Below, piece by piece: positions 7,114 through 44,800 of a stretch of 64,000 nt of DNA. The stretch's first letter is position 1. Every line of letters begins with the position of its first letter. This DNA comes from Eubacteriales bacterium (GTDB lineage Bacteria > Bacillota > Clostridia > Lachnospirales > Lachnospiraceae), in NCBI GenBank assembly GCA_030524455.1, contig JAUNGT010000011.1, forward strand, positions 5,052 to 69,051, written 5' to 3'. The notes under the pieces are model-generated. The model did no database searches and had not been told where the DNA came from. It saw only the letters and a program-made list of their open reading frames with translations. Made by a program: the position numbers and the translations under genes.

Positions 7114-7255
7114 TTCCGATACACTCCAAACATATGCGTGTTGCCTTTGCCAGCACCACCGCCATTTCGCCGCGGGCAATGCCGCAGGCCATAAGCACCG
7201 CGCCCACCAGGGCCAGGGCGGCGCCGGCAAAATATCGTCTGAACCGATTGTGCAT
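7106..7255 (-). CDS. 49-aa membrane protein with C-terminal CxxC (CD1871A-like family)
   Basis: Not in ORF track. GGAGG RBS then MHNRFRRYFAGAALALVGAVLMACGIARGEMAVVLAKATRICLECIGIG*; packed between the tlpA-like gene and the 4Fe-4S gene. Confidence 0.88.
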   Translation of the reverse strand: MHNRFRRYFAGAALALVGAVLMACGIARGEMAVVLAKATRICLECIGIG

Positions 7256-24552: not shown

Positions 24553-25302
24553 TCACTGTCCGGAAAGCGGATTGATCACGATGTTCTCCGCCGCAACGCC
24601 GGTTTTTCTCGAAACTATGTCCTCGATCTGGGCGCACTGTGCGTCCGTCAGCGTGGAAATCCCCACCACCACGTCGGCGGAGTCCTCCGTCAGCGTCACC
24701 ACCGCGTCCGCAAAGCCCTTGGTCTCCAGCAGGATCTCCGCCGCCGTCTCACGCTCGGCAATGTCGGTCAGCTCGATCATGCTGTCCACCGCCTCCTGCT
24801 TCTGGCTCTCCGCAATGTTGGCGTTGTTGATGATCTCCAGCAGCGTCTCCTTGTTCCTGGCCCTGGTCTGCTCCTTCAGCAGGCGCGCGCCGGACAGGCT
24901 GTTGATGCCGCCGGAGTTGGTATAGACCGCCTCGCCGGGAATCTCCCCGTCAGGCACCTCGGCCTCCCCGGCGGAAACACTGCCCGCCTCCGCCTGCCCC
25001 TCGTCCACATAATCCGTCACGATGGAGACGTCGGCGCTGTCCGCCGCCTGCATATCCTGATCCAGGTAATTCCCGGCAGCCTGCCCCTCCGTATCCGAAT
25101 CAAGGCTCGGGATATCGGCGGCCAGATCCTCCTCCGACAGATCCAGAAGCGCCTCCATATCCTCCCCGCCGCTGCCGGCATCCGCGCTCACCAGCTCCTC
25201 CTCCCCGATCTTCGTGCCCGCAAAATTCAGATACCCTGCCACCGCTATCATTATAGCAAGCGCCGTTATCATGACCTGGTTGCGTTTGAACATGTTTTTC
25301 AA
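24553..25302 (-). CDS. spoIIIAH: Stage III sporulation protein AH
   Basis: KRNQVMITALAIMIAVAGYLN; ETAAEILLETKGFADAVV; last gene of the spoIIIA block. Confidence 0.92.
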   Translation of the reverse strand: MKNMFKRNQVMITALAIMIAVAGYLNFAGTKIGEEELVSADAGSGGEDMEALLDLSEEDLAADIPSLDSDTEGQAAGNYLDQDMQAADSADVSIVTDYVDEGQAEAGSVSAGEAEVPDGEIPGEAVYTNSGGINSLSGARLLKEQTRARNKETLLEIINNANIAESQKQEAVDSMIELTDIAERETAAEILLETKGFADAVVTLTEDSADVVVGISTLTDAQCAQIEDIVSRKTGVAAENIVINPLSGQ

Positions 25303-25325: not shown

Positions 25326-25985
25326 TCAGTTTTGCCCCGCACCCTGCGCTCCTTGCCCGGATGCCAGCTTTGCTACTTTAATTTTATGAGCCTCGATGCC
25401 AAATAATGCCTCGATCATGTCCGTGATCTCCTTCTGCACCGCCCGGGAACCGCCGCCCTGGGCAAGCACAGTGACCCCCTCCACCCGGGCCGCCAGCGTC
25501 TTGGTCACATAGGGCGTCTGACCGCCCTCCCGGTCCGTGGCATATACCGTGCTCTCCCGGCGCTCCCGGGAGGAAATGCTGCGGCTTCCGCCTGCGCTGT
25601 CATTCTCGCTGGTCTGGGAGACGGAATCCGCCGGAGCGTCCTTCTCCACGATCCGCTCCTCGGAGGCAGCGTAGGTAAGCATCACCCGCACCTGTCCCGC
25701 CCCCTCCAGCCCGGACAGAAACTCCTCCAGCCTCCCCTCCAGACTGTCCTGTCCGGTCCCTGCAGCCTCCCGCCCGGCGCCGGTTCCCACCGCAGCGCCA
25801 TCCGCTTTCTCTGAGTCCATCATAGCACCGTAGGTGTCCCATTGACCGGACTCGGTCTGCTCCTCCGACTCTTTTTTTCCACCGGCGGGCAGGGCGATCA
25901 CCATCAGCAAAACACCGCAAAGCGCCAGCACGATCATATTTTCCTTCGTCATCCTTGCCCTGCACCAGTCCCGCAGCTTATTCAA
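25326..25985 (-). CDS. spoIIIAG: Stage III sporulation protein AG
   Basis: LEGRLEEFLSGLEGAGQVRVM, TPYVTK, VEGVTVLAQGGG, LFGIEAHKIKV. Confidence 0.92.
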   Translation of the reverse strand: MNKLRDWCRARMTKENMIVLALCGVLLMVIALPAGGKKESEEQTESGQWDTYGAMMDSEKADGAAVGTGAGREAAGTGQDSLEGRLEEFLSGLEGAGQVRVMLTYAASEERIVEKDAPADSVSQTSENDSAGGSRSISSRERRESTVYATDREGGQTPYVTKTLAARVEGVTVLAQGGGSRAVQKEITDMIEALFGIEAHKIKVAKLASGQGAQGAGQN

Positions 25986-28279: not shown

Positions 28280-28813
28280 CTAAAACAACAGAACCACCGT
28301 CAAAAGCCCGCAGGCTGCGCTCACCGCCAGAATCGCCCGCGACTCCCGTTCCGAGCGCTGACGCAGCTCCTCCCCCGCCCGGCAAAAGCGCTGCGCCAGC
28401 CGTTCCACGCTCTCCTGCTGCCGCCCTCCGTCCGGATATCCCAGAAGATCCGGAAAGCGAAGCAGCCAACGCCTTTTCTCCGGAGAAAGCCTGCCGCTTT
28501 CCAAGAAACGCCCCATCTCTTCCTCCCAGATCTCCTCCAGGCACTGGCCCCGCTCCTCCTCCATCCGCCCGCTCACCCGCAAAAGCGCCTCCCCCAGCGT
28601 TATCCCCGAGGGGGTCTCCAAAAGCCGCCTCCCACTGCTTTGCAAAAGCTCCGGCAGACAGGCCCGGCTGTAGCCGATTTCCCCGGCCAGCTCCTCAAAC
28701 AGGCTGCCCAGCAAAAAAAGCTGCTCCGTCTGCCCCCGCATCTGCCGGCACACGCAAAATCCTGCGCCGACGCTCCCCAGCACGAGCAGGGCCGCGCCGG
28801 CCAGCCTCAGCAA
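28280..28813 (-). CDS. spoIIIAB: Stage III sporulation protein AB
   Basis: TTG start overlapping the AA stop; N-terminal TM, EIGY...LPE, LGYPD...Q; C-terminal TM. Confidence 0.87.
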   Translation of the reverse strand: MLRLAGAALLVLGSVGAGFCVCRQMRGQTEQLFLLGSLFEELAGEIGYSRACLPELLQSSGRRLLETPSGITLGEALLRVSGRMEEERGQCLEEIWEEEMGRFLESGRLSPEKRRWLLRFPDLLGYPDGGRQQESVERLAQRFCRAGEELRQRSERESRAILAVSAACGLLTVVLLF

Positions 28814-29787
28814 GGGATCCCGGCGGCCAGACAGCTTCCGCCGGCGTCAATGACCTGCTCCACCCAAAAGCGCCCCTCCCGCCGTCCAAGCACCAGATAC
28901 CGTCCAAAGGCCCCCGCCAAAAACAACGGCTCCAAAAAACGCTTTTTTCTTATTTCCTCAAAGCCGGAGCCATGGACCGTGGCCAGCACGCTGCAGCCGC
29001 ATTTGAGCACCTGCTCCAGCGCTACCACGTCCCCGGGCCCTCCCAGCTCGTCTGCCGCGATCACCTCCGGCCCCATGGAACGCAAAAGCATCAGCATTCC
29101 CGGCCCTTTGGGACAGCCGTCCAGCACATCCGTCCTGAGTCCCAGATCGTGCGCCGGAATCCCCTGCACGCAGGCCGCCAGCTCCGAGCGCTCATCCACC
29201 ACCCCCACCGTTTTGCCCGGCCACTTCCCCGACCCGTCGGACACCAGACGGATCAGATCCCGCAAAAGGGTGGTCTTTCCACAGCCCGGCGGCGAAATCA
29301 GAAGCGTGCTGCAGAGCGTTTTTCCTTCATATAAAAAAGGGAGCACCTCCGTCCCGGCTCCCCGGGCCTGATGGGCGATCCGGATGTTCAGGCTGGAAAT
29401 ATGACGGATATTTTTGACCATGCCGTCCGGCCCAAGGACCGCTTCCCCTGTCACCCCCACCCGAAAGCCTCCCGAAACACTCAGAAACCCCTGTCCCAGC
29501 TCCTCCTCGTAGGCATAAAGGGAATAGCGGCACAAATGCCGGACAATCCGGGAAAGCTCCTGCGCCGTCAGCACATAGGCCCGCTCTGCCTGCTCCGTCA
29601 GTCCGCCGTCCCTTTTTACAAAGGACTCCCCCCTTCCGGTCAGCATAAGCACCGGCCTTTCGGCCCGCAGCCGGATTTCCCGGAGCCCCTCCTCCCGGGA
29701 AAAGGCTGCGGCCACAGCCTTCTCCCAGCGTTCCCGCAGCTGCTCCGGAAACAGCAGCAGCACCTGTCTCTGCGTCTGTCCGTTCAT
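28807..29787 (-). CDS. spoIIIAA: Stage III sporulation protein AA (secretion ATPase-like)
   Basis: Start refined to ATG 29787; EIRLRA, GFRVGVTG, LNIRIA, SPPGCGKTTLLRD, VDERSE, DVLDGCPK, ATVHG. Confidence 0.95.
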   Translation of the reverse strand: MNGQTQRQVLLLFPEQLRERWEKAVAAAFSREEGLREIRLRAERPVLMLTGRGESFVKRDGGLTEQAERAYVLTAQELSRIVRHLCRYSLYAYEEELGQGFLSVSGGFRVGVTGEAVLGPDGMVKNIRHISSLNIRIAHQARGAGTEVLPFLYEGKTLCSTLLISPPGCGKTTLLRDLIRLVSDGSGKWPGKTVGVVDERSELAACVQGIPAHDLGLRTDVLDGCPKGPGMLMLLRSMGPEVIAADELGGPGDVVALEQVLKCGCSVLATVHGSGFEEIRKKRFLEPLFLAGAFGRYLVLGRREGRFWVEQVIDAGGSCLAAGIPC

Positions 29788-32537
29788 GCGGATTTCCCCC
29801 TTTCTTCCCCGGCGTCCCACCCGGCGTCCCGATTTTGTTCAGTATATGACTTTGTCCCGCCGGATATGTCCGGTTCCGGCTCCCGCCTCCCAGGTCCCCC
29901 AAACAGCGCCAACAGCTCATGGGCCAGAAGCGGGAAAGCCGCCAGTCCGGCCAGATAAAGCCATTCCGCCAAAGACAGACGCGCCGTGGAAAACATTTTG
30001 ACCAGAAAAGGGACCTCCGTCACCGCCACCTGAAGAACAAGCCCGGCCGCACAGGCGACAATCATGAGACGGTTCTCCAGATGGTTCATCCGAAAGACGG
30101 AACGCCGCACGTCCCGCATCCCCACCGCATGGAACAGCTGGGACATGCCCAGCACCGTAAAGGCGTAGGTCTGCGCCCGCGTCAGAATCCGCCCATCCTC
30201 CAGCAGCGCCCGGATCCGCTCCGGCAAAAAGGGGATTCCCTCCCGTTCCAGAAGCACCCAGGGCAGGGTGAAATAGGCGGTCAGGCTCACCCCCGCAATC
30301 AGCGCCCCGAAAAATGCCGTCACCGCCAGACCGCCCTCCGCAAACAAGCTCTCCCCGGCCTTCCTGGGCGGCCGCCTCATCAGGCTCTCGCCGTCGTTTT
30401 TGTCCACCCCCAGCGCCAGGGCCGGCAGGGAGTCCGTGATCAGATTGATCCAGAGGATATGGCTGGATTTTAAGGGGGAGGAAAGCCCCAGAAGCACCGC
30501 CGCAAACATGGTCATAATCTCCCCCAGATTTGAGGACAGCAAAAAAATGACCGATTTTTTGATATTTTCATAAACGCTGCGGCCCTCCCGGACCGCCTTT
30601 TGGATCGTGGCAAAGTTATCGTCCGTCAAAATCAGGTCCGCGGCCTGCCGGGCCACGTCGGTGCCGCCCTTTCCCATGGCGACGCCCACATCCGCGGCCT
30701 TTAGGGAGGGAGCGTCGTTGATCCCGTCCCCGGTCATGGCCACGATTTTCCCCTGCTCCTGGAAGGCCCGGACAATCTTTACCTTGTCGGCGGGGGACAC
30801 CCGGGCAAACACTCTCACCCGCAAAAGCCGCTCTGCCAGCTTCTGCCCGGAAAGCCCCTCCAGCTCCTGTCCCGTCATGCACTGCTCCCTGCAGGCGGCG
30901 ATCCCCAGCTGTTTTCCGACGGCAAGGGCCGTATCCGCATGATCCCCGGTGATCATCACCGCAGCGATGCCTGCCCGCTCAAAATCCTCCACCGCGCGGG
31001 CCGCCTCGGGCCGCACCGGATCCCGCATCCCCACCAGCCCCAGAAACGTCAGCTCCCGTTCTGCCCCGGACGTCCCCGTTTTGCGGGCCACCGCCAGGGT
31101 GCGCAGCGCCTGCCCGGAAAACTCTGCCAGCGCTTTTTCGATGCCGGTTCTGTGTTCTGCCGTCATCTCTGTCTCCCGTCCCCGGTACAAAATCCGGGTG
31201 CAGCGTCCCAGCACCCGGTCCGGCGCGCCCTTGGTATAGGCCACGGGCCCGGAAGGCCCCCGGTGCAGGGTGGTCATCATCTTGCGGTCGGAATCAAAGG
31301 CAAGCTCCCCGATGCGGGGCCTGCTTTCCTCCAGCTTTTCCCGGCAAAGCCCGTAGCGGGCCGCCAAATCCAGCAGGGCAAGCTCCGTGGGATCCCCGAT
31401 CCGCTCCCCCAGAAGGCTTGCGTCACAGCACAGGGCCATGGCCCGAAGAAACTCTGCCTGCTCCTCCCGGTCCAGCTCCCCGGGTCCCATTTTTTTCCGG
31501 TCCGCAAAGCAGGCCTGGACCGTCATCCGGTTCTGGGTCAGCGTGCCCGTTTTATCCGAGCAGACCACACTGACAGCCCCCAGCGTTTCCACACTGGGCA
31601 GGCGGCGGACGATCGTGTTGACCTTCACCATACGGGTCACGCTCAGCGCCAGGCACAAAGTCACCACCGCAGGCAGCCCCTCCGGCACTGCCGCCACCGC
31701 CAGCGAAATCGCCGTCAGCAGCATTTCAAACACGTCCCTCTGCTGCCAGACAGCGAGCAAAAAAAGCGCCGCGCAGATGCCCAGAGACAGAAGGCTCAGC
31801 ACCTTCCCCAGCTCTCCAAGACGCTTCTGCAGCGGCGTCATTTCCTCCTTTGTCCCGCTCATCATGGCGGCGATCCGCCCGATCTGGGTATCCATCCCCA
31901 CCGCCGTCACAAGCCCCTTTCCCCTTCCTGCGGTGACGATCGTGGACATAAAAGCCATATTTTGACGGTCCCCCAGCGGGATTTTCCTTTTTCCGGCCCC
32001 CTCCGGAATGGCCGTTGCCTTGACCGCCGGGACCGCCTCGCCGGTCAGGGCCGATTCCTCGATCCGCAGCTGCTCTGCCTCCGTCAGACGAAGATCGGCG
32101 GGAACCTGACCGCCCGCCCGCAAAACCACAAGATCCCCGCGCACAAGAGCGGATGCCGAAATTTCCTGCTCCCGCCCGTCCCGGATGACAAAGGCCCGGG
32201 GTCGGGTCAGCTCCTTTAAGGAATCCAGCGCCCGCTGCGCCTTGCCCTCCTGCAAAAGGCCGACCAGAGCGTTTAAGCCCACCACAAACAGGATAATCCC
32301 CGCGTCGCTGTACTCCCGCAGCAGCACGGAAACCGCCGCAGCCGCAAACAGCACATAGATCAGCGGATCCGCCAGCTGCTCCAAAAAGGCCTGCAGGACA
32401 GTACGCCTTTTGGCCAAAGCCAGCTCGTTTCGCCCGTCCTGTTCAAGCCGCTCCGCCGCTTCCCGGGCGGACAGTCCCCTTCTGTCGTCTGTTCGCAGAA
32501 GCGCTGCGGTCTCCCGGACCGTCTTTTTCTCAAACAT
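29784..32537 (-). CDS. P-type ATPase, P2A (Ca2+-transporting-like)
   Basis: DKTGTLT, VPEGLP, TGEA (TGES variant), KGAP, MITGD, TGDGINDAP, LLSSNLGE, WINLITD. Confidence 0.92.
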   Translation of the reverse strand: MFEKKTVRETAALLRTDDRRGLSAREAAERLEQDGRNELALAKRRTVLQAFLEQLADPLIYVLFAAAAVSVLLREYSDAGIILFVVGLNALVGLLQEGKAQRALDSLKELTRPRAFVIRDGREQEISASALVRGDLVVLRAGGQVPADLRLTEAEQLRIEESALTGEAVPAVKATAIPEGAGKRKIPLGDRQNMAFMSTIVTAGRGKGLVTAVGMDTQIGRIAAMMSGTKEEMTPLQKRLGELGKVLSLLSLGICAALFLLAVWQQRDVFEMLLTAISLAVAAVPEGLPAVVTLCLALSVTRMVKVNTIVRRLPSVETLGAVSVVCSDKTGTLTQNRMTVQACFADRKKMGPGELDREEQAEFLRAMALCCDASLLGERIGDPTELALLDLAARYGLCREKLEESRPRIGELAFDSDRKMMTTLHRGPSGPVAYTKGAPDRVLGRCTRILYRGRETEMTAEHRTGIEKALAEFSGQALRTLAVARKTGTSGAERELTFLGLVGMRDPVRPEAARAVEDFERAGIAAVMITGDHADTALAVGKQLGIAACREQCMTGQELEGLSGQKLAERLLRVRVFARVSPADKVKIVRAFQEQGKIVAMTGDGINDAPSLKAADVGVAMGKGGTDVARQAADLILTDDNFATIQKAVREGRSVYENIKKSVIFLLSSNLGEIMTMFAAVLLGLSSPLKSSHILWINLITDSLPALALGVDKNDGESLMRRPPRKAGESLFAEGGLAVTAFFGALIAGVSLTAYFTLPWVLLEREGIPFLPERIRALLEDGRILTRAQTYAFTVLGMSQLFHAVGMRDVRRSVFRMNHLENRLMIVACAAGLVLQVAVTEVPFLVKMFSTARLSLAEWLYLAGLAAFPLLAHELLALFGGPGRREPEPDISGGTKSYTEQNRDAGWDAGEERGKSA
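29841..29869 (-). promoter_or_regulatory. Sigma-E-like promoter for spoIIIAA inside the ATPase 3' end
   Basis: ACATATC-N14-CATATACT versus the B. subtilis sigma-E consensus (T/G)(A/C)ATA(A/T)(A/T)-N14-CATACA(A/C)T. Confidence 0.7.
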
Positions 32538-32571
32538 CCTCCCACTCCTTGTCCTGATTTCTTATAGGAAC

Positions 32572-32600
32572 AACGTATGCAGGAGGCGGACAGGTTATGA
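32572..32600 (-). promoter_or_regulatory. Sigma-E-like promoter upstream of the P-type ATPase
   Basis: TCATAAC-N14-CATACGTT in the 73-bp intergenic gap, 34 nt before the ATG. Confidence 0.7.
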
Positions 32601-32610
32601 GCAGGTTTTG

Positions 32611-33984
32611 CTATCGCTGCCCGATCAGGCGGATCAGCAGCCGCTTCCAGCCGGTAAAGGGCTGATAGCGGGCCGTTATGTCCAGCCGCACCGATTTTTC
32701 CAGAATACTCTTCTCATGGCTGAAGGTCTTAAAACCGGCCTTTCCGTGATAAGCGCCCATCCCGCTCTCCCCAACGCCCCCGAAAGGAAGGCCGGGTACG
32801 GTCAGATGCATCACCGTGTCGTTTACGCAGCCCCCGCCAAAGGAGGTTTCCCGCACGAACATCCGCTTGGTCCGGCTGCTTCGCGTAAACACATAGCAGG
32901 CAAGAGGACGGGGCCTTTTTCGCACAAAGCGCCGGGCCTCCTCCATGGAGTCCACCACCAGCACCGGCAACACCGGCCCGAAAATCTCCTCCCGCATGAC
33001 CGCGTCCTCCCCGGAAACCGGGTAAAGAAGGGTAGGCTCAATCTGCAGCGTCTTTTCTCTCGACCGGCCGCCGTATATCACCTTTCCCTCATCCATCAGC
33101 CCTCTGATCCGGTCAAAATGCTTCCGGTTCACGATCCGCCCATAATCCGGATTCGCCAAAGCGTCCTCCCCGTACATCCGCCGGATCCAGTACGCAAGCT
33201 CCCGCACAAGCGCTTCGGCCACGCACCTTTCCACCAGCACATAATCCGGCGCAACGCAGGTCTGCCCGCAGTTTAACAGCTTTCCAAAGACGATCCGCCG
33301 GGCCGCCAGGGACAGCTTTGCCGTCCGATCCACGATGCAGGGGCTTTTGCCGCCAAGCTCCAGGGAAACCGGCGTCAGATGGGCCGCCGCCTTTTCCATC
33401 ACCAGCTTTCCCACGGATACGCTTCCGGTGAAAAAAATATAATCGAAGCGCTGCTCCAAAAGCGCCCGGTTCTCCTCCCTTCCTCCTTCCACCACCGCCA
33501 CATAGCGTTCCGGAAAAATCCCGGCAAGCAGCTCTGCAATCAGCCGGGAGGTGGCGGGCGCGTAGGCCGAGGGCTTGACGACGCAGCAGTTGCCCGCCGC
33601 GATGGCCCCGGCCAGCGGCTCGATCGCCAGCATAAAGGGATAGTTCCACGGAGACATCACCAGCGTCACCCCATAGGGCTCCTGCACCAGGTAGCCTCTG
33701 GAGGGAAAATTGGCCAGCGTCGAAACGACCCGCCGCGCCCGGCTGTTTCTTCGCAGCTGCCGCCTCTGCTCCCGCAGCTCTGCCAAAACCAGCCCCACCT
33801 CGCACATGTACCCTTCTGTCTCCGATTTTCCAAGATCCTCCTTCAGGGCGCGGCAAATCTGTCCCTCCATGCCCCTGACCGCCCGCTCCAGCCTCCTGAG
33901 GGCTGCCATCCGGAATCCGATGTCCAGTGTTTTTCCCGTCTCAAAAAAACGTCTCTGCCGTTTTATGATGTTCTCAATCTCCAT
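32611..33984 (-). CDS. NAD(P)-dependent aldehyde dehydrogenase (ALDH3-like)
   Basis: Start refined to ATG 33984 (GGGAGGAG RBS); SPWNYP, FFTGS, LELGGKSP, NCGQTCVAPDY, EEIFGP, PFGGVGESGMGAYHG. Confidence 0.95.
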   Translation of the reverse strand: MEIENIIKRQRRFFETGKTLDIGFRMAALRRLERAVRGMEGQICRALKEDLGKSETEGYMCEVGLVLAELREQRRQLRRNSRARRVVSTLANFPSRGYLVQEPYGVTLVMSPWNYPFMLAIEPLAGAIAAGNCCVVKPSAYAPATSRLIAELLAGIFPERYVAVVEGGREENRALLEQRFDYIFFTGSVSVGKLVMEKAAAHLTPVSLELGGKSPCIVDRTAKLSLAARRIVFGKLLNCGQTCVAPDYVLVERCVAEALVRELAYWIRRMYGEDALANPDYGRIVNRKHFDRIRGLMDEGKVIYGGRSREKTLQIEPTLLYPVSGEDAVMREEIFGPVLPVLVVDSMEEARRFVRKRPRPLACYVFTRSSRTKRMFVRETSFGGGCVNDTVMHLTVPGLPFGGVGESGMGAYHGKAGFKTFSHEKSILEKSVRLDITARYQPFTGWKRLLIRLIGQR

Positions 33985-34072
33985 TTTGCTCCTCCCGTCC
34001 CTTCCGACACCGATACCGATACTGTTCCCTTTATTTTCACACACTATCCCCTCCCTTTCAAGTGCTTTTCCA

Positions 34073-34102
34073 TGATTGATTTTGACCGTTTGTGAATGTT
34101 TT
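34073..34102. promoter_or_regulatory. FruR-type operator array 1 (three 10-bp direct repeats)
   Basis: TGATTGATTT TGACCGTTTG TGAATGTTTT, matching the TGAWWGWTTT-type FruR repeat of Firmicutes. Confidence 0.7.
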
Positions 34103-34125
34103 ACAATTTTATCCTCCATATTTTG

Positions 34126-34167
34126 TGAAGTATATTGATTGATTTTGGCTGATTATGGTGTTATACT
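34126..34167 (+). promoter_or_regulatory. fru operon sigma-A promoter overlapped by FruR operator array 2
   Basis: TTGATT-N17-TATACT (34139-34167) with 10-bp repeats TGAAGTATAT TGATTGATTT TGGCTGATTA. Confidence 0.72.
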
Positions 34168-37164: not shown

Positions 37165-37914
37165 ATGCTGACAGAAAAACGCCAGGCGGAAATCCTCCGC
37201 CTTCTCAAAGAGCAGGGAAGTATCACCCTGCAGGAATTAAAGGAAACCCTGGGAGCCTCCGAATCCACGATCCGGCGCGACTTAAACGCCCTCGATCAGG
37301 AGGGGAAGCTGTGCAAGGTGTTCGGCGGCGCCGTCCGCACGGACGGCGATGAAAAAATCGTCAGCACCGAGGACAGCGTTTCGGCCCGCGAGGTGCGAAA
37401 CCGTTCGGAAAAGGAGGCGGTCGCCCGTTATGCCGTCTCCCTGATCCATCCTGACGACTATATCTATCTGGATGCGGGCACCACCACCGGCTGCCTGATC
37501 CCGCTGCTGCCTCCCATCCGGGCCACCTTTGTGACCAACGCCATCGCCCACGCCCGGGCGCTGGCCGCCAGAGGCTTTCAGGTGATCCTGCCCGGCGGAG
37601 AGGTCAAGGCCTCCACCGAGGCGCTGGTGGGCCACAGCGCCTGTCAGTTTCTGCAGCGCTATCATTTTTCGGTAGGCTTCTTTGGCACAAACGGCGTCCA
37701 CCAGAAGGCGGGCTTCACCACCCCCGACCAGCTGGAGGCCGAGATCAAGCGGACGGCGCTGTCAAACTGCCACCGCCGCTATGTGCTCTGCGATCACGAA
37801 AAATTCAACGTGGTCACGCCGGTCTCCTTCGCAGCCTTCCCGGATGCCACGGTGATCACGTCCGGCCCCCTGCCGGGGGGGTATACCGAATGCCGGAATG
37901 TGATTACGGTGTGA
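37165..37914 (+). CDS. fruR: DeoR/GlpR-family repressor FruR
   Basis: Start refined to ATG 37165; ASESTIRRDL, YLDAGTTT, VTN, FFGTNGV, LCDHEKF. Confidence 0.92.
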   Translation: MLTEKRQAEILRLLKEQGSITLQELKETLGASESTIRRDLNALDQEGKLCKVFGGAVRTDGDEKIVSTEDSVSAREVRNRSEKEAVARYAVSLIHPDDYIYLDAGTTTGCLIPLLPPIRATFVTNAIAHARALAARGFQVILPGGEVKASTEALVGHSACQFLQRYHFSVGFFGTNGVHQKAGFTTPDQLEAEIKRTALSNCHRRYVLCDHEKFNVVTPVSFAAFPDATVITSGPLPGGYTECRNVITV

Positions 37915-40267
37915 TTTTTTCCACCGTTATAACGGTCATCGAATGTTCCGCAAATTCCCACTCCAGTTCATTGCCCCTCACGACAGTCTGCCTCGTGTGG
38001 GGCACAACGGTATCCGGATATTCAAAAGTATTTTCCGCCGTCAACGCATTTTCCTTCAATTCCGTCACCTCTGCCCTCCGCACTTCCACCGTCTTATGCG
38101 TGGCATTCTTTTGTTTCTGTTCCTCAAACCGTATCATTACCTTTTTGGCTTCTCCGGTCAGATTGACTGCCTTCAGGATCGTTTTCTCCCCATCCCGGCT
38201 TGCGGCCAGATATAACTCCTCCAGCTCCGGCATCCGGTATGTGGCGTCGTTGTAAAGCTCGCCGTTTATGTAGGTACGGATCCGTCTTCCGCGCACCTCC
38301 AGGCGCAGGCGATAGTCACGATCCTCCACCCGGAAAATCCGATGGGAAATTGTGGAGGCGCGCCCGTTGCAAACACTGGAAAGATTACAGTCCCAGTTGT
38401 CCCATCCGCCAAACTCCCACTCCACAAAGTTTCCTTCTCCCTTTTTCCCGAAGAAAATCTTTAACCCCTTTCGCCCGGCCGTCCTGCAAAAATCAAATTC
38501 CAGATCAAAGCCCTCCGCATCACTGTCCGCCAGCCGAATTTCACAATTATCCTCCGACACATCGAAATCTGCGATCTCCAGTTTTTTATCCGGACCGTAT
38601 GAAACAAAAGCTACGTTCCGAATCCGTCCTGCAATATCATTTCCCCGCAAAGAAACACTTCCGTCAAGCCTGTCCTTTTCCGATAACCGAATGATTTTAT
38701 CCAAACCGGAGGTGGTAAACTCCAGTTCCTGTGTACCCTGATAAATCATAAACAGCTTTTGTACATAGTAGTTGGGTGTTTTCAAAATGCGATGGTTGTC
38801 AAACCACAGCATATCCGGCTTCCAATTTACATAGTCCACATTGCAGAGCATGGGAGCATAGCAGGCAAGCCCCACTGCCTTGGCCCTTTCCAGATGGGTC
38901 ATATAGGCGGCCTCCACCAATGCGTTGTAATAGGTATTTCCCCAGGAAGCATATTCCCCCAAAAATACCTTCGGGCCTTTCTCGTCATAATCATCATAGT
39001 GATGCATATTTGCCAAAAACCATTCCGGCGAACAATAATAATGCTCGTCAATCAGATCAGAGCCGTATTTTTTTGCACTGGACCAACCCGCTTCATACCC
39101 CTCCCCCACAGAAAACGGACCGGCAGAATTGATCAGCTTAATCTGAGGATATTTCTCCCGGACAGCCCGATGGAAATAAGGATAACGCTCAAAAAATCCC
39201 GCTCCGATCTCCTCGTTGCCGATTGCCAGATATTCCAGCCCAAACGGTTTCTCGTGTCCCATCCGCGCCCGCAGGCCGCCCCACTTTGTATCGGTACCGC
39301 CATTGGCAAACTCGATTAAATCCAATGCCTCCTGTACCCATTTCCCGATTTCCTCCAAAGGCGCGCCTTCCCCCGTATGCGGGTTGAAGCCGCCGGGCAG
39401 CACCGGAAGCGGCTTTGCGCCGATATCCTCACAGAACAGGAAATACTCATAATATCCCAGTCCCATGGACTGATTGTATCCCCAACTGTTGCGCCTGGAA
39501 GGTCTCTCCTCCACCGGCCCAAGTGTATTTTCCCAGCGATACATCGAATCGTGAGCATTCTCGTCCAGACTGCCTGCGTGGGTCAGGCAGCCGCCGGGAA
39601 ACCGCAGAAATTTCGGCTTCATCTCGCACAACGCCTGAGCGATATCCTGCCGCAGTCCGTTTTTCCGTCCCCGGAAGGTGTCCTCAGGGAACAAAGAAAC
39701 CATATCCAGACACAATGCTCCTCCCTCAGGAAACGTAAGGCGCAGTCGTCCCTGCGCAGTCGTCTGATCTGCAGTCAATCTAAGCTCATATTTTTTCCAT
39801 TCCTGACCCTCGGCGCAAAGCCGCCCCTCAGCGCAGTGCTCCCCGAAATCAGCGCTTCCTTCCTGTTCCTTTCTCTCTATGCTGACCAATATGGGACAGC
39901 TGATCTCCCTTACCTTTGCATAGAAAGAAAGCCTGTACACCTTCCCTTTTTCCACATAGATGCCGGTGTTGTAGCCGCTGTTTTCAACAAAGCTGTCCGG
40001 CTGTGCCTGAATGCTAAGATAATGCGGATTTTTTTCGTTTAGCGGAGCTGCACTGCCGATCTCCCACTCCAACTGCCCGCTCTTTTCCCAGGCAGTTAAA
40101 CCGTGATAGCCCTCCCGGTCCATCGCGCAGAATTCAAAGGAACGGTTTCGTACCAGCTCTGCGTATAAACCGCCGTCCGCCGCATGATTCAGATCTTCAA
40201 AAAATAAACCGTATAAATCTCCCAGCTCTCGTCTGACCTGATCCTCGTAAATTGTAATAGTCTTCAT
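37904..40267 (-). CDS. GH51 alpha-L-arabinofuranosidase with an extra inserted domain
   Basis: GLFFEDLNHAADGGLYAELVRNRSFE, FLRFPGGC, AIGNEE, DEHYY, FLGEYA, ACYAPML, PNYYVQKLF. Confidence 0.92.
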   Translation of the reverse strand: MKTITIYEDQVRRELGDLYGLFFEDLNHAADGGLYAELVRNRSFEFCAMDREGYHGLTAWEKSGQLEWEIGSAAPLNEKNPHYLSIQAQPDSFVENSGYNTGIYVEKGKVYRLSFYAKVREISCPILVSIERKEQEGSADFGEHCAEGRLCAEGQEWKKYELRLTADQTTAQGRLRLTFPEGGALCLDMVSLFPEDTFRGRKNGLRQDIAQALCEMKPKFLRFPGGCLTHAGSLDENAHDSMYRWENTLGPVEERPSRRNSWGYNQSMGLGYYEYFLFCEDIGAKPLPVLPGGFNPHTGEGAPLEEIGKWVQEALDLIEFANGGTDTKWGGLRARMGHEKPFGLEYLAIGNEEIGAGFFERYPYFHRAVREKYPQIKLINSAGPFSVGEGYEAGWSSAKKYGSDLIDEHYYCSPEWFLANMHHYDDYDEKGPKVFLGEYASWGNTYYNALVEAAYMTHLERAKAVGLACYAPMLCNVDYVNWKPDMLWFDNHRILKTPNYYVQKLFMIYQGTQELEFTTSGLDKIIRLSEKDRLDGSVSLRGNDIAGRIRNVAFVSYGPDKKLEIADFDVSEDNCEIRLADSDAEGFDLEFDFCRTAGRKGLKIFFGKKGEGNFVEWEFGGWDNWDCNLSSVCNGRASTISHRIFRVEDRDYRLRLEVRGRRIRTYINGELYNDATYRMPELEELYLAASRDGEKTILKAVNLTGEAKKVMIRFEEQKQKNATHKTVEVRRAEVTELKENALTAENTFEYPDTVVPHTRQTVVRGNELEWEFAEHSMTVITVEKITP

Positions 40268-40270
40268 TTT

Positions 40271-41188
40271 TCATCCTTTCACGGAGCCTACCATCACGCC
40301 CTTCTCAAAAAACTTCTGTGCAAAGGGATACATGATAATCAGCGGGATCGCCGACAGTATCATGCAGGCCAGCTCGATTGTTTTATAATTGGAGGCCGCC
40401 TCCGACATGGCGGATAAAATTGACGACATAGAACTTCCGTTTAAGCTGCTGCTTAAATTGGCTGCTGCCTCGCTGGATTTCATCAACGACAGTGTATAAT
40501 AGGACAGCGTTTGCAGTCCCTCGGATTTTGTATAGTAAAGCGTCTGCGTGTAATCGTTCCACATGCCCACTGCCGTAAAAATACCCAACGCACTTAATAC
40601 AGGCTTGGACAGGGGCAACACGATCCGGAAGAAAATCACCGGCTCCGACGCGCCATCCATCTTGGCGGATTCAAACAAAGACTCCGGAATCGCCTTGAAA
40701 TTTGCATTGAAAATAATTACATTGTAAAACCCTCCAAAGAGAGAAGGAATGATATACACCCAGAACGTATCATACAGGTTCAGCGCATTGAACAGGATAA
40801 AATAGGCGATCACGCCACCGTTCAGGTACATACACAAAAATCCCAGAGCCGCATAAAATTTTTTCCCGGTCAGATTCGGCCTGGAAAAACCATAGGCAAA
40901 CATCGACGTGATCAGTGTCTGCAAAACAGTGACGATCAGCGTTCTGGAGAAGGTGGTAAAAAGGGCCTTCAAAATCTCCGGGTCATTCAGGACTGTTTTC
41001 CAGCTCTCCCAGGTAAAATCCCGGATCCACAAAAGCGCATATCCATTTTTTGAAATATCCGCAGCGCTGTTTAAGGAGTTGATCAGAGAGTACCATACCG
41101 GATAGACCGTGATCAGCATGATAAGCACCATCACTCCAGTAAGTACCACATTAAAAATCCGCTGATTTTTGGAATTCAGTTTATTCAT
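40271..41188 (-). CDS. Carbohydrate ABC transporter permease
   Basis: EAA motif IPESLFESAKMDGAS, IVLPLSKP, multi-TM. Confidence 0.93.
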   Translation of the reverse strand: MNKLNSKNQRIFNVVLTGVMVLIMLITVYPVWYSLINSLNSAADISKNGYALLWIRDFTWESWKTVLNDPEILKALFTTFSRTLIVTVLQTLITSMFAYGFSRPNLTGKKFYAALGFLCMYLNGGVIAYFILFNALNLYDTFWVYIIPSLFGGFYNVIIFNANFKAIPESLFESAKMDGASEPVIFFRIVLPLSKPVLSALGIFTAVGMWNDYTQTLYYTKSEGLQTLSYYTLSLMKSSEAAANLSSSLNGSSMSSILSAMSEAASNYKTIELACMILSAIPLIIMYPFAQKFFEKGVMVGSVKG

Positions 41189-41198
41189 CGCAACCTCC

Positions 41199-42149
41199 TC
41201 AGAACAATCCGCTGTCGGTCAGCTTATTGGAAACCTTGTTTGCGCCCACCAGCAAAATCAAAGCCAGCACGGATTTGAAAATATTGATCGCCGCCGCCAT
41301 TCCAAACTGCAGCTGCTGTAATCCCACCTTATAAATATAGGTATCAATCACCTCGCTTCGCTCCAAATTGAAAGCGTTCTGCAGTACATAAAGCTGATCA
41401 AAATTGTTATTCAAAATACCGGCCACCGCGAAAATCATCATAATAACCACTGTCCCTTTGATACAGGGCAGCGTCACATACCACATCTTCCGATAACGGC
41501 CCGCGCCGTCCAATACGGCCGCCTCGTAGAGTTCCTGATCCACGCCCGCAATCGCCGCCGTATACAAAATCGTGCCCCATCCAATTTCCTTGACCAGATT
41601 TGAAACGATGGAAATGGCCCAGAAATATTTCGGCTCCGCCATAAACACAACCGGAGTGTCAAGTATTCCAAGCCGCAGAAGCAAAGCGTTGACCATGCCG
41701 CCGTCCGCGCTCAAAAGCTCAATCACAATACCGCCGAACACCACCCAGGAAATAAAGTGCGGCATATAGGTGACCGTCTGAACACAGCTTTTGAATCTGG
41801 GCTTGGCAATCTCGTTGATAAAAAGCGCAAACAGGATCGTCAGCGGCAGTGCCACAAGCTGACCGATCAGATTCAGGCCCAGGGTATTGACCAGCATCCT
41901 TGAGAAATCGTGATTGGAAAAAATAATTTTAAAATTCTGAAGCCCGTAAAAGGGACTGGTGAAAATCCCCAGAATCCCCTCTGTTACCTTGTAATTTTTA
42001 AAGGCCAGTATCAGGCCGAACAAGGGAATTACATTGAACAAAATCATCAGCACCGTGCCCGGCAGCATCATGCCGTGAAGCTGGCACTGTGTCCCCTTAT
42101 CGTATCCAAGCCTGTAGTTTGAAGCTTTTGATTTTTTTGTACTTTTCAT
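41199..42149 (-). CDS. Carbohydrate ABC transporter permease (LplB/YteP-like)
   Basis: Start refined to ATG 42149; YMPHFISWVV, AGVDQELYEAAVLDGAGR, EVIDTYIY. Confidence 0.93.
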   Translation of the reverse strand: MKSTKKSKASNYRLGYDKGTQCQLHGMMLPGTVLMILFNVIPLFGLILAFKNYKVTEGILGIFTSPFYGLQNFKIIFSNHDFSRMLVNTLGLNLIGQLVALPLTILFALFINEIAKPRFKSCVQTVTYMPHFISWVVFGGIVIELLSADGGMVNALLLRLGILDTPVVFMAEPKYFWAISIVSNLVKEIGWGTILYTAAIAGVDQELYEAAVLDGAGRYRKMWYVTLPCIKGTVVIMMIFAVAGILNNNFDQLYVLQNAFNLERSEVIDTYIYKVGLQQLQFGMAAAINIFKSVLALILLVGANKVSNKLTDSGLF

Positions 42150-42157
42150 GATGTCCT

Positions 42158-42199
42158 CCAAAAAAGCGGGCGCCTGGGAATTTTCTCTCCCCGACGCCC
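42158..42199 (-). terminator. Stem-loop plus U-tract downstream of the binding-protein gene
   Basis: Minus strand GGGCGTCGGGGA-N8-TCCCAGGCGCCC-GCTTTTTT; typical partial terminator/stabiliser after sugar SBP genes. Confidence 0.55.
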
Positions 42200-42222
42200 C
42201 TTCTGTCTTTGGCCGCGCCTGC

Positions 42223-43920
42223 CTACTTGTAAAGCGCTGCGTTTACATCCTCTATTTTTTCACCCAGCCGCTGACAGCTCTCCTGCAAATACTTGTCATA
42301 TTCCGCATCGATCTCTTCGATGGAGTAACTGTTCAAAGTGTCAATCATATTCTGATATTCCGTCTCAAAAGCCTCGTCCGTGGAAGCCGACACAATCTTT
42401 GCCTTCTGGGACTCCAGATAATTGTCCACCTGGGAAAGCTTGATACCCAGATCGCTGGAGGGCTCGATCACATTGCCGCTGGTAAAGGAGATCAAATCGG
42501 AATTATAAATATAGGTATCCTCATATTTTCCCATTGCCGTGCTGACCTGATTGAAGGCTGCCGCATCCGTTCCCTCCTCGGGAGCCGCCTGTGTGGACCA
42601 CGCATAATCCGTATTGGCAAATGGCCACAGCGTAATATTCTTGGCATAATCGTCCTCGTATCTCTTCTGTCCCTCCTCGGTGCGAACCGCAACGCCATTT
42701 TCGTCAAAATTAAAATCTACACCCTCCACACCGTATTCATTTAGCGTAAGTCCTTCTCTGCTTGTCGCAAAGCTGAGCATCTTGGCGATCTGTTCCGGAT
42801 TCTCACAATCCTTGGAGATAAAGGTCTGAATCCATCCGGAGCCTGCGGAAAGATTGATACCGGCCACAGGCTTCGCACCGTTGGAGGCCAGGATCGGTCC
42901 ATAAGAGACGAAAGGAATCTGCTCCTTTTTGCTGCTCTGTGCAGGGTTTCCGATCCAACAAAATACCCGTCCGCCCTCCACATAGGTTTTTAACGCCGCC
43001 TCGTCCAATGTCAGCACGTTTACATCCAAATATCCGTCCTGAATCAGATTGTTCACAAACTTCAGCGCATTCTTATAGCCGGGAGCCATCTCGAGATGCC
43101 GGTAAGCGCCCTCCTCGTCCACCGGTGCCACGCCGAAGGTCTCACGGATGATGCCGTCCAGAGAGGAATTAATCCAGAGGTTCGCGTGAAGTACCACGGG
43201 AAGCACAGGCTGTCCGTCCACTGTGTAGCCGGAATTTTTAACCTTCTCGCAGGCGGCATAAAAGCCTTCCTCCGTCTGCACATCCTCCTGCGTAATCCCA
43301 AGCGCATCCATAATCGTCTTGTTGAACATGATGGAGGAGTTATGTCCCTTCGTCACATTATCCAGATAAGCCTGCTGGGTCAGCGGGTACACCTGGCGCA
43401 TATCCTCCGACTCCAGATGACTGGGAAGGGAATACCAGCCGCCGTACTTATAGACCACCGCCTCCTTGATATCCTCCGGAAAATCCGTCAGCAAATGAGA
43501 CTCCGGATCATAGGTCTGCAAAAATTCCTCTATCTGCCATACCTTTCCGGACTGAATCAGCTGCTTGATCGTATCCGCATCCGTCAGGGAAATCATGTCC
43601 GGCAGATCTCCGGAAGCGATCATCAATCCAACCTTTGTGTCCGCATCTGTGGGCGGCTGCTCCAGTTTCAGGGCCAGCCCCGTCTTTTCCGTAATCGCAT
43701 CCATCAGCGGGGAAGTCTCCACACCGCTTGTCCAGCCTGAAGGTCCCCACCCTGTCACATCGGAAAACCATTCCACCTCTGCCACAGAGTTTCCTGCATC
43801 CGCGCTTTGCGACGATGCGGTTTGATCCGCTGCAGCGCTGCCTCCGCAGGCTGCAAGCCCTGCGGTCATCGCGCCTGCCAGCGCCAGAATGCTCGCTTTT
43901 TTTACAATCTGTCTTTTCAT
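42223..43920 (-). CDS. Carbohydrate ABC substrate-binding lipoprotein
   Basis: Lipobox GLAAC; LMIASGDLPDMI; upstream of two permeases. Confidence 0.92.
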   Translation of the reverse strand: MKRQIVKKASILALAGAMTAGLAACGGSAAADQTASSQSADAGNSVAEVEWFSDVTGWGPSGWTSGVETSPLMDAITEKTGLALKLEQPPTDADTKVGLMIASGDLPDMISLTDADTIKQLIQSGKVWQIEEFLQTYDPESHLLTDFPEDIKEAVVYKYGGWYSLPSHLESEDMRQVYPLTQQAYLDNVTKGHNSSIMFNKTIMDALGITQEDVQTEEGFYAACEKVKNSGYTVDGQPVLPVVLHANLWINSSLDGIIRETFGVAPVDEEGAYRHLEMAPGYKNALKFVNNLIQDGYLDVNVLTLDEAALKTYVEGGRVFCWIGNPAQSSKKEQIPFVSYGPILASNGAKPVAGINLSAGSGWIQTFISKDCENPEQIAKMLSFATSREGLTLNEYGVEGVDFNFDENGVAVRTEEGQKRYEDDYAKNITLWPFANTDYAWSTQAAPEEGTDAAAFNQVSTAMGKYEDTYIYNSDLISFTSGNVIEPSSDLGIKLSQVDNYLESQKAKIVSASTDEAFETEYQNMIDTLNSYSIEEIDAEYDKYLQESCQRLGEKIEDVNAALYK

Positions 43921-44033
43921 TGCATCTCCTCCTCGTCATTTTTTATGCTTTTGTTTTCTCAACTGTTAATTTATTATAAAAAACGCTACATTGAATTGGT
44001 ATGTGTGAATTTCAGAATTTTGGTCAAAATTTT

Positions 44034-44060
44034 AAAAAAAGAAGCCCTCACAGGCTTCTT
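44034..44060 (-). terminator. Intrinsic terminator overlapping the response regulator stop
   Basis: AAGAAGCC-N6-GGCTTCTT followed by a T run on the minus strand. Confidence 0.65.
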
Positions 44061-44800
44061 CTGTAGGCGCTGGGGCTAATACCCGTAGCCTTTTTAAACA
44101 CTTTCATAAAGTAAAAGTAATCACCGTAGCCAACCTGCTCCGCAATCTCCTCGATGCTCCTGTCCGTGTCCTTCAGCAGCTGCTGGGCTTTTTGGATACG
44201 GGCCTCCAGCAAATGGTCGCTGTAGCTTTTCCCCGTATTTTTCTTGATAATCTGACTGACCGCACTGACACTCATGCCAAAGTTCTCCGCCAAAAGCTGC
44301 TGCGTTACAGTAGCATAATGTTTCCGCAGATAGACAAGCATCTCCTGCGCCGTTTTCCCTTCCGATTGCCAGGGCCGCTCCCCTTCCGTCTCCGTCCCTC
44401 CATCCCCCTCCTCATTCAGGCGGCGCCGGTTCAGCCTTTTCTCCACCTTTTTCAGACAGGATAACAACTCCTCCTCGTACACCGGCTTTAACAGATAGTC
44501 AGCGCAGCCGTACTGCAACCCCGCTCTGGCATACTCAAATTCCGAATAACCGCTGATAATCACCACCTCTGCGTCCAGCTTTGCCTCCCGTACTCTGCTG
44601 ATCAATTCGATTCCATCCAGGCCCGGCATCTGAATGTCTGAGATAATCAAATCCGGCTTCGTGTTGCAGATCCGCTCCCAGGCCTTCACGCCATCTGTCG
44701 CCTCCCCGCAGATCACAAAACCGCTTTCTCTCCAATCAATCAGATTTTGCAGTCCCAGAAGCACCCATGGTTCATCATCCGCTAAAAATACTCGATACAT
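44048..44800 (-). CDS. YesN-like response regulator (REC plus AraC HTH)
   Basis: Start refined to ATG 44800; VFLADDE, ISDIQMPGLDG, DYLLKP, VGYGDYFYFMKVFKK. Confidence 0.94.
   Translation of the reverse strand: MYRVFLADDEPWVLLGLQNLIDWRESGFVICGEATDGVKAWERICNTKPDLIISDIQMPGLDGIELISRVREAKLDAEVVIISGYSEFEYARAGLQYGCADYLLKPVYEEELLSCLKKVEKRLNRRRLNEEGDGGTETEGERPWQSEGKTAQEMLVYLRKHYATVTQQLLAENFGMSVSAVSQIIKKNTGKSYSDHLLEARIQKAQQLLKDTDRSIEEIAEQVGYGDYFYFMKVFKKATGISPSAYRRSL

Follow-up and report, generated by a model that had tools for sequence, protein, structure and literature searches.

A predicted P2A-type Ca2+ pump gene with a sigma-E-type promoter motif of its own beside the spoIIIA operon in a small clade of Lachnospiraceae

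In a 64,000-nucleotide (nt) stretch of DNA from a member of the Lachnospiraceae (Eubacteriales bacterium, assembly GCA_030524455.1, contig JAUNGT010000011.1, positions 5,052 to 69,051; the whole stretch is called the window below), a gene for a P2A-type cation P-type ATPase runs directly into spoIIIAA, the first gene of the spoIIIA operon. This arrangement raises the question of whether the ATPase is the first cistron of an enlarged, nine-gene spoIIIA operon, as a preliminary description of the sequence had proposed, or a pump gene with its own promoter that stands next to it. We think it reasonably probable that the locus holds a Ca2+ pump of the YloB/CD2833 type, with its own sigma-E promoter (P1), beside a spoIIIA operon with a sigma-E promoter of its own (P2), the two forming tandem sigma-E units. 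The features that bear on this question are given here in window coordinates, with protein lengths in amino acids (aa).

32572..32600, minus strand: P1, TCATAAC (-35, 32600..32594), 14-nt spacer, CATACGTT (-10, 32579..32572); from the sequence, matrix and conservation
32538..32550, minus strand: strong ATPase ribosome-binding site AAGGAGTGGGAGG, between P1 and the ATPase ATG; conserved in the related locus L005
29784..32537, minus strand: P2A-type (YloB/LMCA1/SPCA-like) cation P-type ATPase, 917 aa; from Pfam, NCBIfam and the LMCA1 and SPCA1 structures
29787..29900, minus strand: non-conserved C-terminal tail of the ATPase, residues ~880-917; from tail comparison among relatives
29841..29869, minus strand: P2, ACATATC (-35), spacer CGGCGGGACAAAGT (14 nt), CATATACT (-10), 53 nt before the spoIIIAA ATG
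29784..29787, minus strand: ATGA, in which the stop codon of the ATPase and the start codon of spoIIIAA overlap; from the sequence
28807..29787, minus strand: spoIIIAA, 326 aa; PF19568 3.9e-101, TIGR02858 307.8, above cut-off

P1 occupies the 73-nt gap between the stop of an aldehyde dehydrogenase gene (32611) and the ATPase ATG (32537). The preliminary description had noted TCATAAC-N14-CATACGTT just upstream of the ATPase, and the motif is indeed found there, at 32600..32572 and 34 nt before the ATG; the corresponding transcription start would lie near 32565. A weight matrix was derived from 33 unique spoIIIAA promoters of Lachnospiraceae, and P1 scored 14.1 bits with it. When the whole window was shuffled by dinucleotides, 0.65 sites with 14 bits or more were obtained over both strands, so that a P1-type site in that 73-nt gap and on the correct strand is unlikely to have arisen by chance. 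In a sigma-70 scan, the gap upstream of the ATPase yielded no promoter-like site of this type. Both P1 and P2 have the form expected of sigma-E promoters, with ATA in the -35 element (kmATAww), CATAnnnT at -10 and ~14 nt between the two elements. ATA at -35 was reported to mark sigma-E and AC to mark sigma-K (Saujet et al. 2013, PMC3789822); P1 has ATA and not AC, and a sigma-K reading of P1 was judged weaker on this ground.

We then considered the regions upstream of ATPase orthologues, which were collected in a metagenome scan with the ATPase (80 further loci) and pooled into species-level clusters; counts of clusters hold among the matches listed. In the 140 nt ahead of the gene, 17 of 31 clusters had the strict pattern nnATAnn-N14-CATAnnn[T/A], compared to 0.66% expected per region, so that the conservation of the upstream motif, which the preliminary description had put forward for checking, was confirmed. 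ATA and CATA were the only invariant columns in 12 aligned orthologous upstream regions. P1 shares extended sequence around the -10 element (GCATAGGTTGTAC) with orthologues that do not adjoin spoIIIA, and a P1-like element lies at the same distance in orthologues with unrelated neighbors (spoVA, permease and others), as in the following examples.

L087, ATPase adjoining a permease gene: ACATATT-N14-CATAGATT
L090: ACATATT-N14-CATAGACT
L089, inside a spoVA cluster, 66 nt before the ATPase start: GAATATC-N14-CATAGGTT
L156: ACATATT-N14-CATACACT

Because ATPase orthologues have this motif in other gene neighborhoods too, P1 belongs to the ATPase and not to spoIIIA. An origin of P1 as a captured spoIIIA promoter was ruled out by the GCATAGGTTGTAC sequence shared with orthologues away from spoIIIA and by the continued presence of P2. 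Moreover, the P1 spacer contains a SpoIIID-like box, CTGTCC (32593..32588). Such boxes (GGACA[AG] or its complement) were found within or just after 9 of 12 ATPase promoters compared to ~9% expected; CTGTCC or GGACAA also occurs in the ATPase promoters of L001, L008, L093, L094, L087 and L090. P1 thus probably carries a SpoIIID operator.

The preliminary description had missed a second, stronger sigma-E-type site, P2 (29869..29841), inside the 3' end of the ATPase gene. With 19.6 bits, P2 is the joint top matrix match of the 64-kb window on both strands; the other site with this score (TAATATA-N14-AATATATT at 6481..6509, minus strand) is located within an open reading frame (ORF) for a 320-aa Fe-S membrane protein (6268..7230). 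No site other than P1 and P2 reaches 8 bits in the stretch that begins 200 nt upstream of the ATPase and runs to the start of spoIIIAA. Of the best 80 loci, 77 lack the ATPase, and in 68 of these the family consensus kmATAAC-N13/14-CATATATT precedes spoIIIAA; the typical spoIIIAA element, TCATAAC-TTGGACAAAGGTT-CATATATT, is very uniform (33 unique versions). A SpoIIID-like GGACAA lies in the P2 spacer, and a box of this type is found in the spacer of most spoIIIAA promoters. P2 sits within the last 37 codons of the ATPase, in which conservation stops at FPLLAHELL and the tails vary in length and sequence. In L001 and L009 the P2 element falls between the genes; in the window, L005 and L008 it is part of the coding sequence. 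Kept whether coding or intergenic, and whatever the reading frame, P2 is constrained as DNA. We read it as the ancestral promoter of spoIIIA, which has been retained.

At the junction itself, the ATPase TGA (29786..29784) overlaps the spoIIIAA ATG (29787..29785), and spoIIIAA has its own ribosome-binding site. The preliminary description was thus correct about the overlap, which it took as a sign of translational coupling. However, because P2 is buried in the non-conserved C-terminal extension of the ATPase, the ATGA rather looks like a by-product of the ATPase frame crossing the old intergenic region. A terminator scan found no terminator at the ATPase-spoIIIAA junction, weak terminator-like sites inside the ATPase gene being disregarded. 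Since neither a gap nor a terminator separates the two genes, read-through from P1 into spoIIIA is likely. The nine-gene unit under a sigma-E-like promoter is therefore plausible as far as the conserved P1 and the uninterrupted junction go, but P1 is the promoter of the ATPase, and spoIIIA keeps P2.

In a further step, the distribution of the adjacency was surveyed from both sides. One genome per species was scanned with a SpoIIIAA alignment, and the nearest 80 loci among the matches listed were taken. The ATPase was located upstream of spoIIIAA in three of them (L007, L008 and L009, with SpoIIIAA 57-61% identical), which are the three nearest, and was not located there in the other 77, including other Candidatus Eisenbergiella; for ~66 of these, the sequence reaches 3 kb or more upstream. 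In the ATPase survey, 7 of 33 species-level clusters showed the adjacency, and these seven form one clade in a neighbor-joining tree computed without support values. The genes upstream of the ATPase vary within this clade (aldehyde dehydrogenase, DUF4143, AraC or integrase). L005 and L006 have the same 4-nt ATPase-spoIIIAA overlap as the window, and L001 to L004 have a 130-nt spacer. Because the seven adjacent clusters are monophyletic, we take the adjacency, as it appears in these loci, to be narrow and to have arisen once. Family-wide conservation of the ATPase beside spoIIIAA, which would mark it as a member of the operon, was not found, and the synteny survey proposed in the preliminary description thus ended with a single small clade. 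In Candidatus Eisenbergiella merdipullorum, spoIIIA and the ATPase lie at separate loci (L062 and L087), each with its own promoter.

The junctions of the clade can be arranged in a series. In L009, P2 lies in a spacer, and the ATPase stop is directly followed by a perfect 13-bp hairpin (L009:2924-2952, z = -4.85), which lacks a T-run and may be a partial terminator or an RNA-stability element between the ATPase and spoIIIA. The 130-nt spacer of L001 contains P2, and in the window, L005 and L008 P2 lies in the tail of the ORF. Finally, no P2-type promoter was detected before spoIIIAA in L007 (5860-6010), L093 (6100-6250) and L092. Since no P2 is detectable there, these two relatives, L007 and L092/L093, appear to have lost the inner promoter; their spoIIIA may depend on the ATPase promoter, and the ATPase and spoIIIA may form a true nine-gene operon in them.

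This series bears on the view that spoIIIA is here a nine-gene operon with the ATPase as its obligate first gene, translationally coupled to spoIIIAA and working physically with SpoIIIA-SpoIIQ, for example recruited by this complex or feeding Ca2+ through it. The lack of a detectable spoIIIA-type promoter in L007 and L092/L093 fits this view, as do the ATGA overlap without gap or terminator in the window and the fact that the junction is kept in 7/7 clusters of the clade though the genes upstream of the ATPase have been reshuffled. Moreover, Seidel et al. (2026, PMC12999246), who named neither the sigma factor nor the localization partner of the pump YloB, suggested a partner such as SpoIIIAH-SpoIIQ. 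However, in the window the top-scoring P2 is still present and spoIIIAA has a ribosome-binding site of its own, the L009 hairpin and the P2-containing spacer of L001 stand between the genes, 77 of the 80 nearest species hold the genes apart, and Ca. Eisenbergiella merdipullorum provides each with its own promoter. We thus consider an obligate nine-gene operon unlikely, and two tandem units remain our preferred reading of the window.

A metagenomic copy of the L001 type (L002:8822-14300) showed fragmented calls for spoIIIAA, AE, AF, AG and AH together with an intact ATPase; this fragmentation probably reflects indel errors of long-read assembly rather than gene decay.

The ATPase gene is also linked to spoVA genes. 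In L089 (2227-7874) the order is spoVAA-AB-AC, ATPase, spoVAD, and the ATPase keeps its own sigma-E-type motif; in L142 (1650-6062) the ATPase follows spoVAA-AB-AC; in L098 and L099 spoVAD lies 2.3-2.7 kb downstream of the ATPase. These lineages are scattered and mostly basal in the sister clade, again in the neighbor-joining tree without support values. Most ATPase orthologues adjoin non-sporulation genes (MCP, ABC transporter, permease), and a Pfam survey of 138 neighboring proteins revealed no universal partner gene. Our literature searches, whose coverage was incomplete, returned no paper that describes the ATPase gene as linked to either spoIIIA or spoVA.

An ATPase gene inside the spoVA clusters of L089 and L142 would also suit a pump that the forespore produces under the control of sigma-G or sigma-F and that acts at the inner forespore membrane, and an involvement of SigG has been speculated for Bacillus subtilis yloB (cited in PMC12999246). 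However, the ATPase in the spoVA cluster of L089 still has its own GAATATC-N14-CATAGGTT motif, and the combination of ATA at -35, CATA at -10 and a 14-nt spacer fits sigma-E. A sigma-G reading of P1 was judged weaker, its spacing and its -10 element being off the sigma-G pattern; we take the sigma-G -10 consensus to be CATnnTA, which P1 does not match. Pumps of the P2 type export from the cytoplasm, according to the standard polarity of P-type ATPases, and such a pump would thus remove Ca2+ from the forespore instead of loading it. Since, in addition, the reporter of the Solibacillus pump was mother-cell specific (PMC12999246), we regard a forespore pump as highly improbable and keep to expression in the mother cell.

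Is the protein a Ca2+ pump? Its Pfam architecture comprises Cation_ATPase_N, E1-E2_ATPase, a HAD hydrolase with an inserted nucleotide-binding domain, and Cation_ATPase_C, all five domains scoring above their cut-offs. The catalytic motifs are DKTGT at residues 328-332 (with D328 as the phosphorylation site), TGE at 165-167 and TGDGINDAP at 602-610. The membrane motifs that the preliminary description had matched to P2A Ca2+ pumps could be placed at residues 284-288 (VPEGL), 668-673 (SSNLGE) and 696-702 (WINLITD), and both the domain architecture and the nearest structures agree with that assignment. E286, N670, E673, N698, T701 and D702 are all present and align with the Ca2+ site of LMCA1. 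By comparison with SERCA, the Glu of PEGL belongs to helix M4, the Asn/Glu pair to M5 and the Asn, Thr and Asp residues to M6. The sequence leaves no doubt about the class of fold; among solved structures, LMCA1 (6zhf, E 8e-169) comes closest, followed by SPCA1 and SERCA2 in this order. LMCA1 (Lmo0841 of Listeria monocytogenes) resembles the window protein in its full-length match, its ten-helix P2A architecture and its PEGL/NxxxD site, and differs from it in having Ala and Arg at the positions of E673 and Q800. Listeria does not sporulate. The top NCBIfam models are Ca2+ P2A equivalogs (PMR1-type, SERCA-type and PMCA-type), each matched below its cut-off. Among the nearest ATPase homologues, which show at most 72% identity and come from gut metagenomes, those with a name are Lachnospiraceae or Candidatus Eisenbergiella. 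The ATPase of the window is thus predicted to be a bacterial P2A pump of the Ca2+ type, possibly for Ca2+/Mn2+.

We compared the locus with known systems. In Clostridioides difficile, expression of CD2833, a putative calcium-transporting ATPase, is down in a sigE mutant (0.22) and up in a spoIIID mutant (2.25), and its mapped sigma-E promoter reads GTAATAT-N14-CATATAAT (Saujet et al. 2013, PMC3789822). CD2833 resembles the window ATPase as a clostridial P-type Ca2+-ATPase with its own promoter (CD2833 is monocistronic), the architecture of which equals that of P1; CD2833 is repressed by SpoIIID, and P1 carries a SpoIIID-like box. In contrast to the window gene, CD2833 was not reported beside spoIIIA (spoIIIAA of C. 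difficile is CD1192), and what is known for CD2833 is its regulation only.

The second precedent is YloB of B. subtilis (Raeymaekers et al. 2002) and Solibacillus silvestris. In Solibacillus silvestris, YloB showed a mother-cell-specific reporter and localization to the engulfing (forespore) membrane, and spores of the yloB mutant were poorly dehydrated and heat sensitive (Seidel et al. 2026, PMC12999246). YloB is likewise a P2A Ca2+-ATPase expressed in sporulation, and the window protein shares with B. subtilis YloB the Glu/Gln pair that this study gives as E702/Q809 (E673/Q800 in the window). In contrast, yloB is encoded away from spoIIIA and spoVA and no sigma-E motif was found upstream of it in those Bacilli (PMC12999246), whereas the pump of the window clade has a clear, conserved sigma-E-type motif. 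Since the YloB proteins of B. subtilis and Solibacillus are only ~43% identical (PMC12999246), sequence orthology across classes is loose; the window ATPase is a putative member of the YloB/CD2833 group, to which the residue comparison through PMC12999246 points indirectly.

Like the canonical spoIIIAA-AH operon of B. subtilis and C. difficile, that of the window has 8 genes in this order, preceded by a sigma-E-type promoter that includes a SpoIIID-like box; in C. difficile, TTGTCC is present in the mapped promoter of spoIIIAA. The window operon differs in that the spoIIIA promoter is buried in the coding tail of the ATPase and that a second sigma-E-type promoter lies 2.7 kb further upstream. 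The kind of system is thus already known, namely, a sporulation-specific mother-cell Ca2+-ATPase (YloB; CD2833), and the locus is a local variant of it and no new kind of system. The preliminary description had ranked it as a candidate for an undescribed system, which the documented CD2833 (PMC3789822) and Solibacillus YloB (PMC12999246) contradict. What appears to be undescribed in the searched literature is a pump gene that abuts or is fused to spoIIIA or is embedded in spoVA clusters, and a clear, conserved sigma-E-type pump promoter in Lachnospiraceae.

Several observations weigh against a sigma-E-controlled Ca2+ pump. The sites used to train the matrix were picked with a consensus derived from B. 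subtilis. The strict motif is missing from 14 of the 31 ATPase clusters among the matches listed, several of which have near matches, and the distribution figures come from samples, that is, from the matches listed, with ~600 pattern matches. The tree that defines the clade, as said, carries no support values. The ATPase falls below every NCBIfam Ca2+-ATPase equivalog cut-off, with 730.6 versus 798.3 for TIGR01522 (PMR1-type), 610.7 versus 703.4 for TIGR01116 (SERCA-type) and 479.5 versus 507.05 for TIGR01517 (PMCA-type). Because all these cut-offs are missed, we file it under no single eukaryote-centered subtype, and because the best model is of the PMR1 type, Mn2+ stays a possible ion. Finally, in neither the window nor L005 could a terminator be made out downstream of the aldehyde dehydrogenase gene and ahead of P1, and vegetative read-through into the ATPase would therefore be possible.

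Taken to its end, this last point would make the ATPase a general housekeeping Ca2+/Mn2+ efflux pump that is made in vegetative cells, for instance from transcripts running on from the aldehyde dehydrogenase gene; the motif would then be no working promoter, and the adjacency to spoIIIA would be neutral. Shared ancestry alone could explain the persistence of an adjacency that goes back to a single event, and the MCP, ABC transporter and permease genes beside most orthologues would fit a function outside sporulation. However, the motif is ~80-fold enriched upstream of orthologues in unrelated contexts, in which only the ATA and CATA cores are invariant, and the linkage to spoVA genes is independent of that to spoIIIA. 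In L093, moreover, P1 is cut off from the aldehyde dehydrogenase gene by a canonical terminator, so that the ATPase must depend on P1 there. Together with the experimentally sigma-E-dependent Ca2+-ATPase of C. difficile (PMC3789822), these observations make a housekeeping pump improbable in our view, and we retain a sporulation pump transcribed from P1.

The following scenario, in which we infer sigma-E dependence, read-through, the transported ion, membrane localization and the role in the spore, would account for the locus. The ATPase, together with P1, would have landed once directly upstream of spoIIIA in a small clade of Eisenbergiella-like Lachnospiraceae. In the window genome, the ATPase frame would have run on across the old intergenic region, creating the ATGA overlap and enclosing P2. 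P1 would drive the ATPase, with transcripts probably continuing into spoIIIAA-AH, and P2 would drive spoIIIAA-AH. Once the cell has divided asymmetrically, both promoters would become active in the mother cell, to be damped later by SpoIIID, and the ATPase would be coexpressed, and partly cotranscribed, with the channel genes. The pump would sit in the engulfing (outer forespore) membrane and export Ca2+ from the mother-cell cytoplasm to the intermembrane space, from where it would enter the forespore with dipicolinate through SpoVA. A pump gene beside spoIIIA or spoVA would thus obtain matching timing and compartment and would require no new machine. This proposed role agrees with what was observed for Solibacillus YloB, namely, a mother-cell reporter, localization at the engulfing membrane and a defect in dehydration and heat resistance.

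To the question of how Ca2+ reaches the forespore, the locus and its relatives add a clear, conserved sigma-E-type promoter with SpoIIID-like boxes for a clostridial pump and a repeated gene linkage to SpoIIIA and SpoVA, the two machines that span the forespore membranes. The genomes moreover form a natural series, with two separate units at one end and what appears to be a fused nine-gene unit at the other. Many genes annotated as "cation-translocating P-type ATPase" in spore-forming gut Lachnospiraceae could be annotated as probable sporulation pumps. A bolder proposal, which strikes us as rather doubtful, is that the pump is transcriptionally fused to the SpoIIIA operon in this clade, fully so where P2 has been lost, and is held at the engulfing membrane with or by SpoIIIA-SpoIIQ, delivering Ca2+ to the intermembrane space for uptake by SpoVA. 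If this were true, the fusion to spoIIIA and the embedding in spoVA clusters would be the first genomic-context evidence for a physical Ca2+ route into the forespore.

On the minus strand, the order of genes is aldehyde dehydrogenase gene, 73-nt gap, ATPase, spoIIIAA-AH, phosphopentomutase-like gene and prfC. The spoIIIA operon is complete, with its 8 genes AA-AH in canonical order and a Pfam or NCBIfam match for each. The remaining features are as follows.

32611..34119, minus strand: aldehyde dehydrogenase gene, context only; Pfam
28280..28813, minus strand: spoIIIAB; PF09548
28049..28243, minus strand: spoIIIAC; PF06686, TIGR02848
27645..28031, minus strand: spoIIIAD; PF06686, TIGR02849
26586..27635, minus strand: spoIIIAE; PF09546
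25978..26574, minus strand: spoIIIAF, probable start 26574; PF09581
25326..25985, minus strand: spoIIIAG; TIGR02830 9.7e-29, below cut-off, and position in the operon
25381..25409, minus strand: internal sigma-E-like motif GCATTAT-N14-CATAAAAT in the 3' end of spoIIIAG, 79 nt before spoIIIAH; matrix 12.8
24553..25302, minus strand: spoIIIAH; PF12685 2.9e-54

The mechanical ORF of spoIIIAF extends to 26700, the PF09581 match begins at its residue 55, and homologues have 194-196 aa. An internal promoter lies before spoIIIAG in B. subtilis and C. difficile; in the window, by contrast, the promoter-like motif lies before spoIIIAH. A motif of the GCATTAT-N14-CATAAAAT type precedes spoIIIAH in 49 of 76 Lachnospiraceae loci, and sites of at least 11 bits were found before spoIIIAG in 0 of 52. 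The motif overlaps the conserved peptide EALFGIEAHKI, and because of this location in conserved coding sequence it is only suggestive of a promoter; protein constraint may account for part of its conservation.

A further sigma-E-like site, CCATAAT-N15-AATATACT (34158..34129, minus strand, 14.0 bits), lies ahead of the aldehyde dehydrogenase gene; it was not conserved in L005 or L093 and was excluded from the unit. A sigma-70-like site at 34061..34033 lies nearer the probable aldehyde dehydrogenase start, and the sigma-E-like site is probably a chance match. Farther upstream, the G+C content falls to 0.47-0.51 at 38000..46000, compared to ~0.58-0.63 elsewhere in the window; this region starts at a 787-aa ORF (37904..40267, minus strand) and may have been horizontally acquired.

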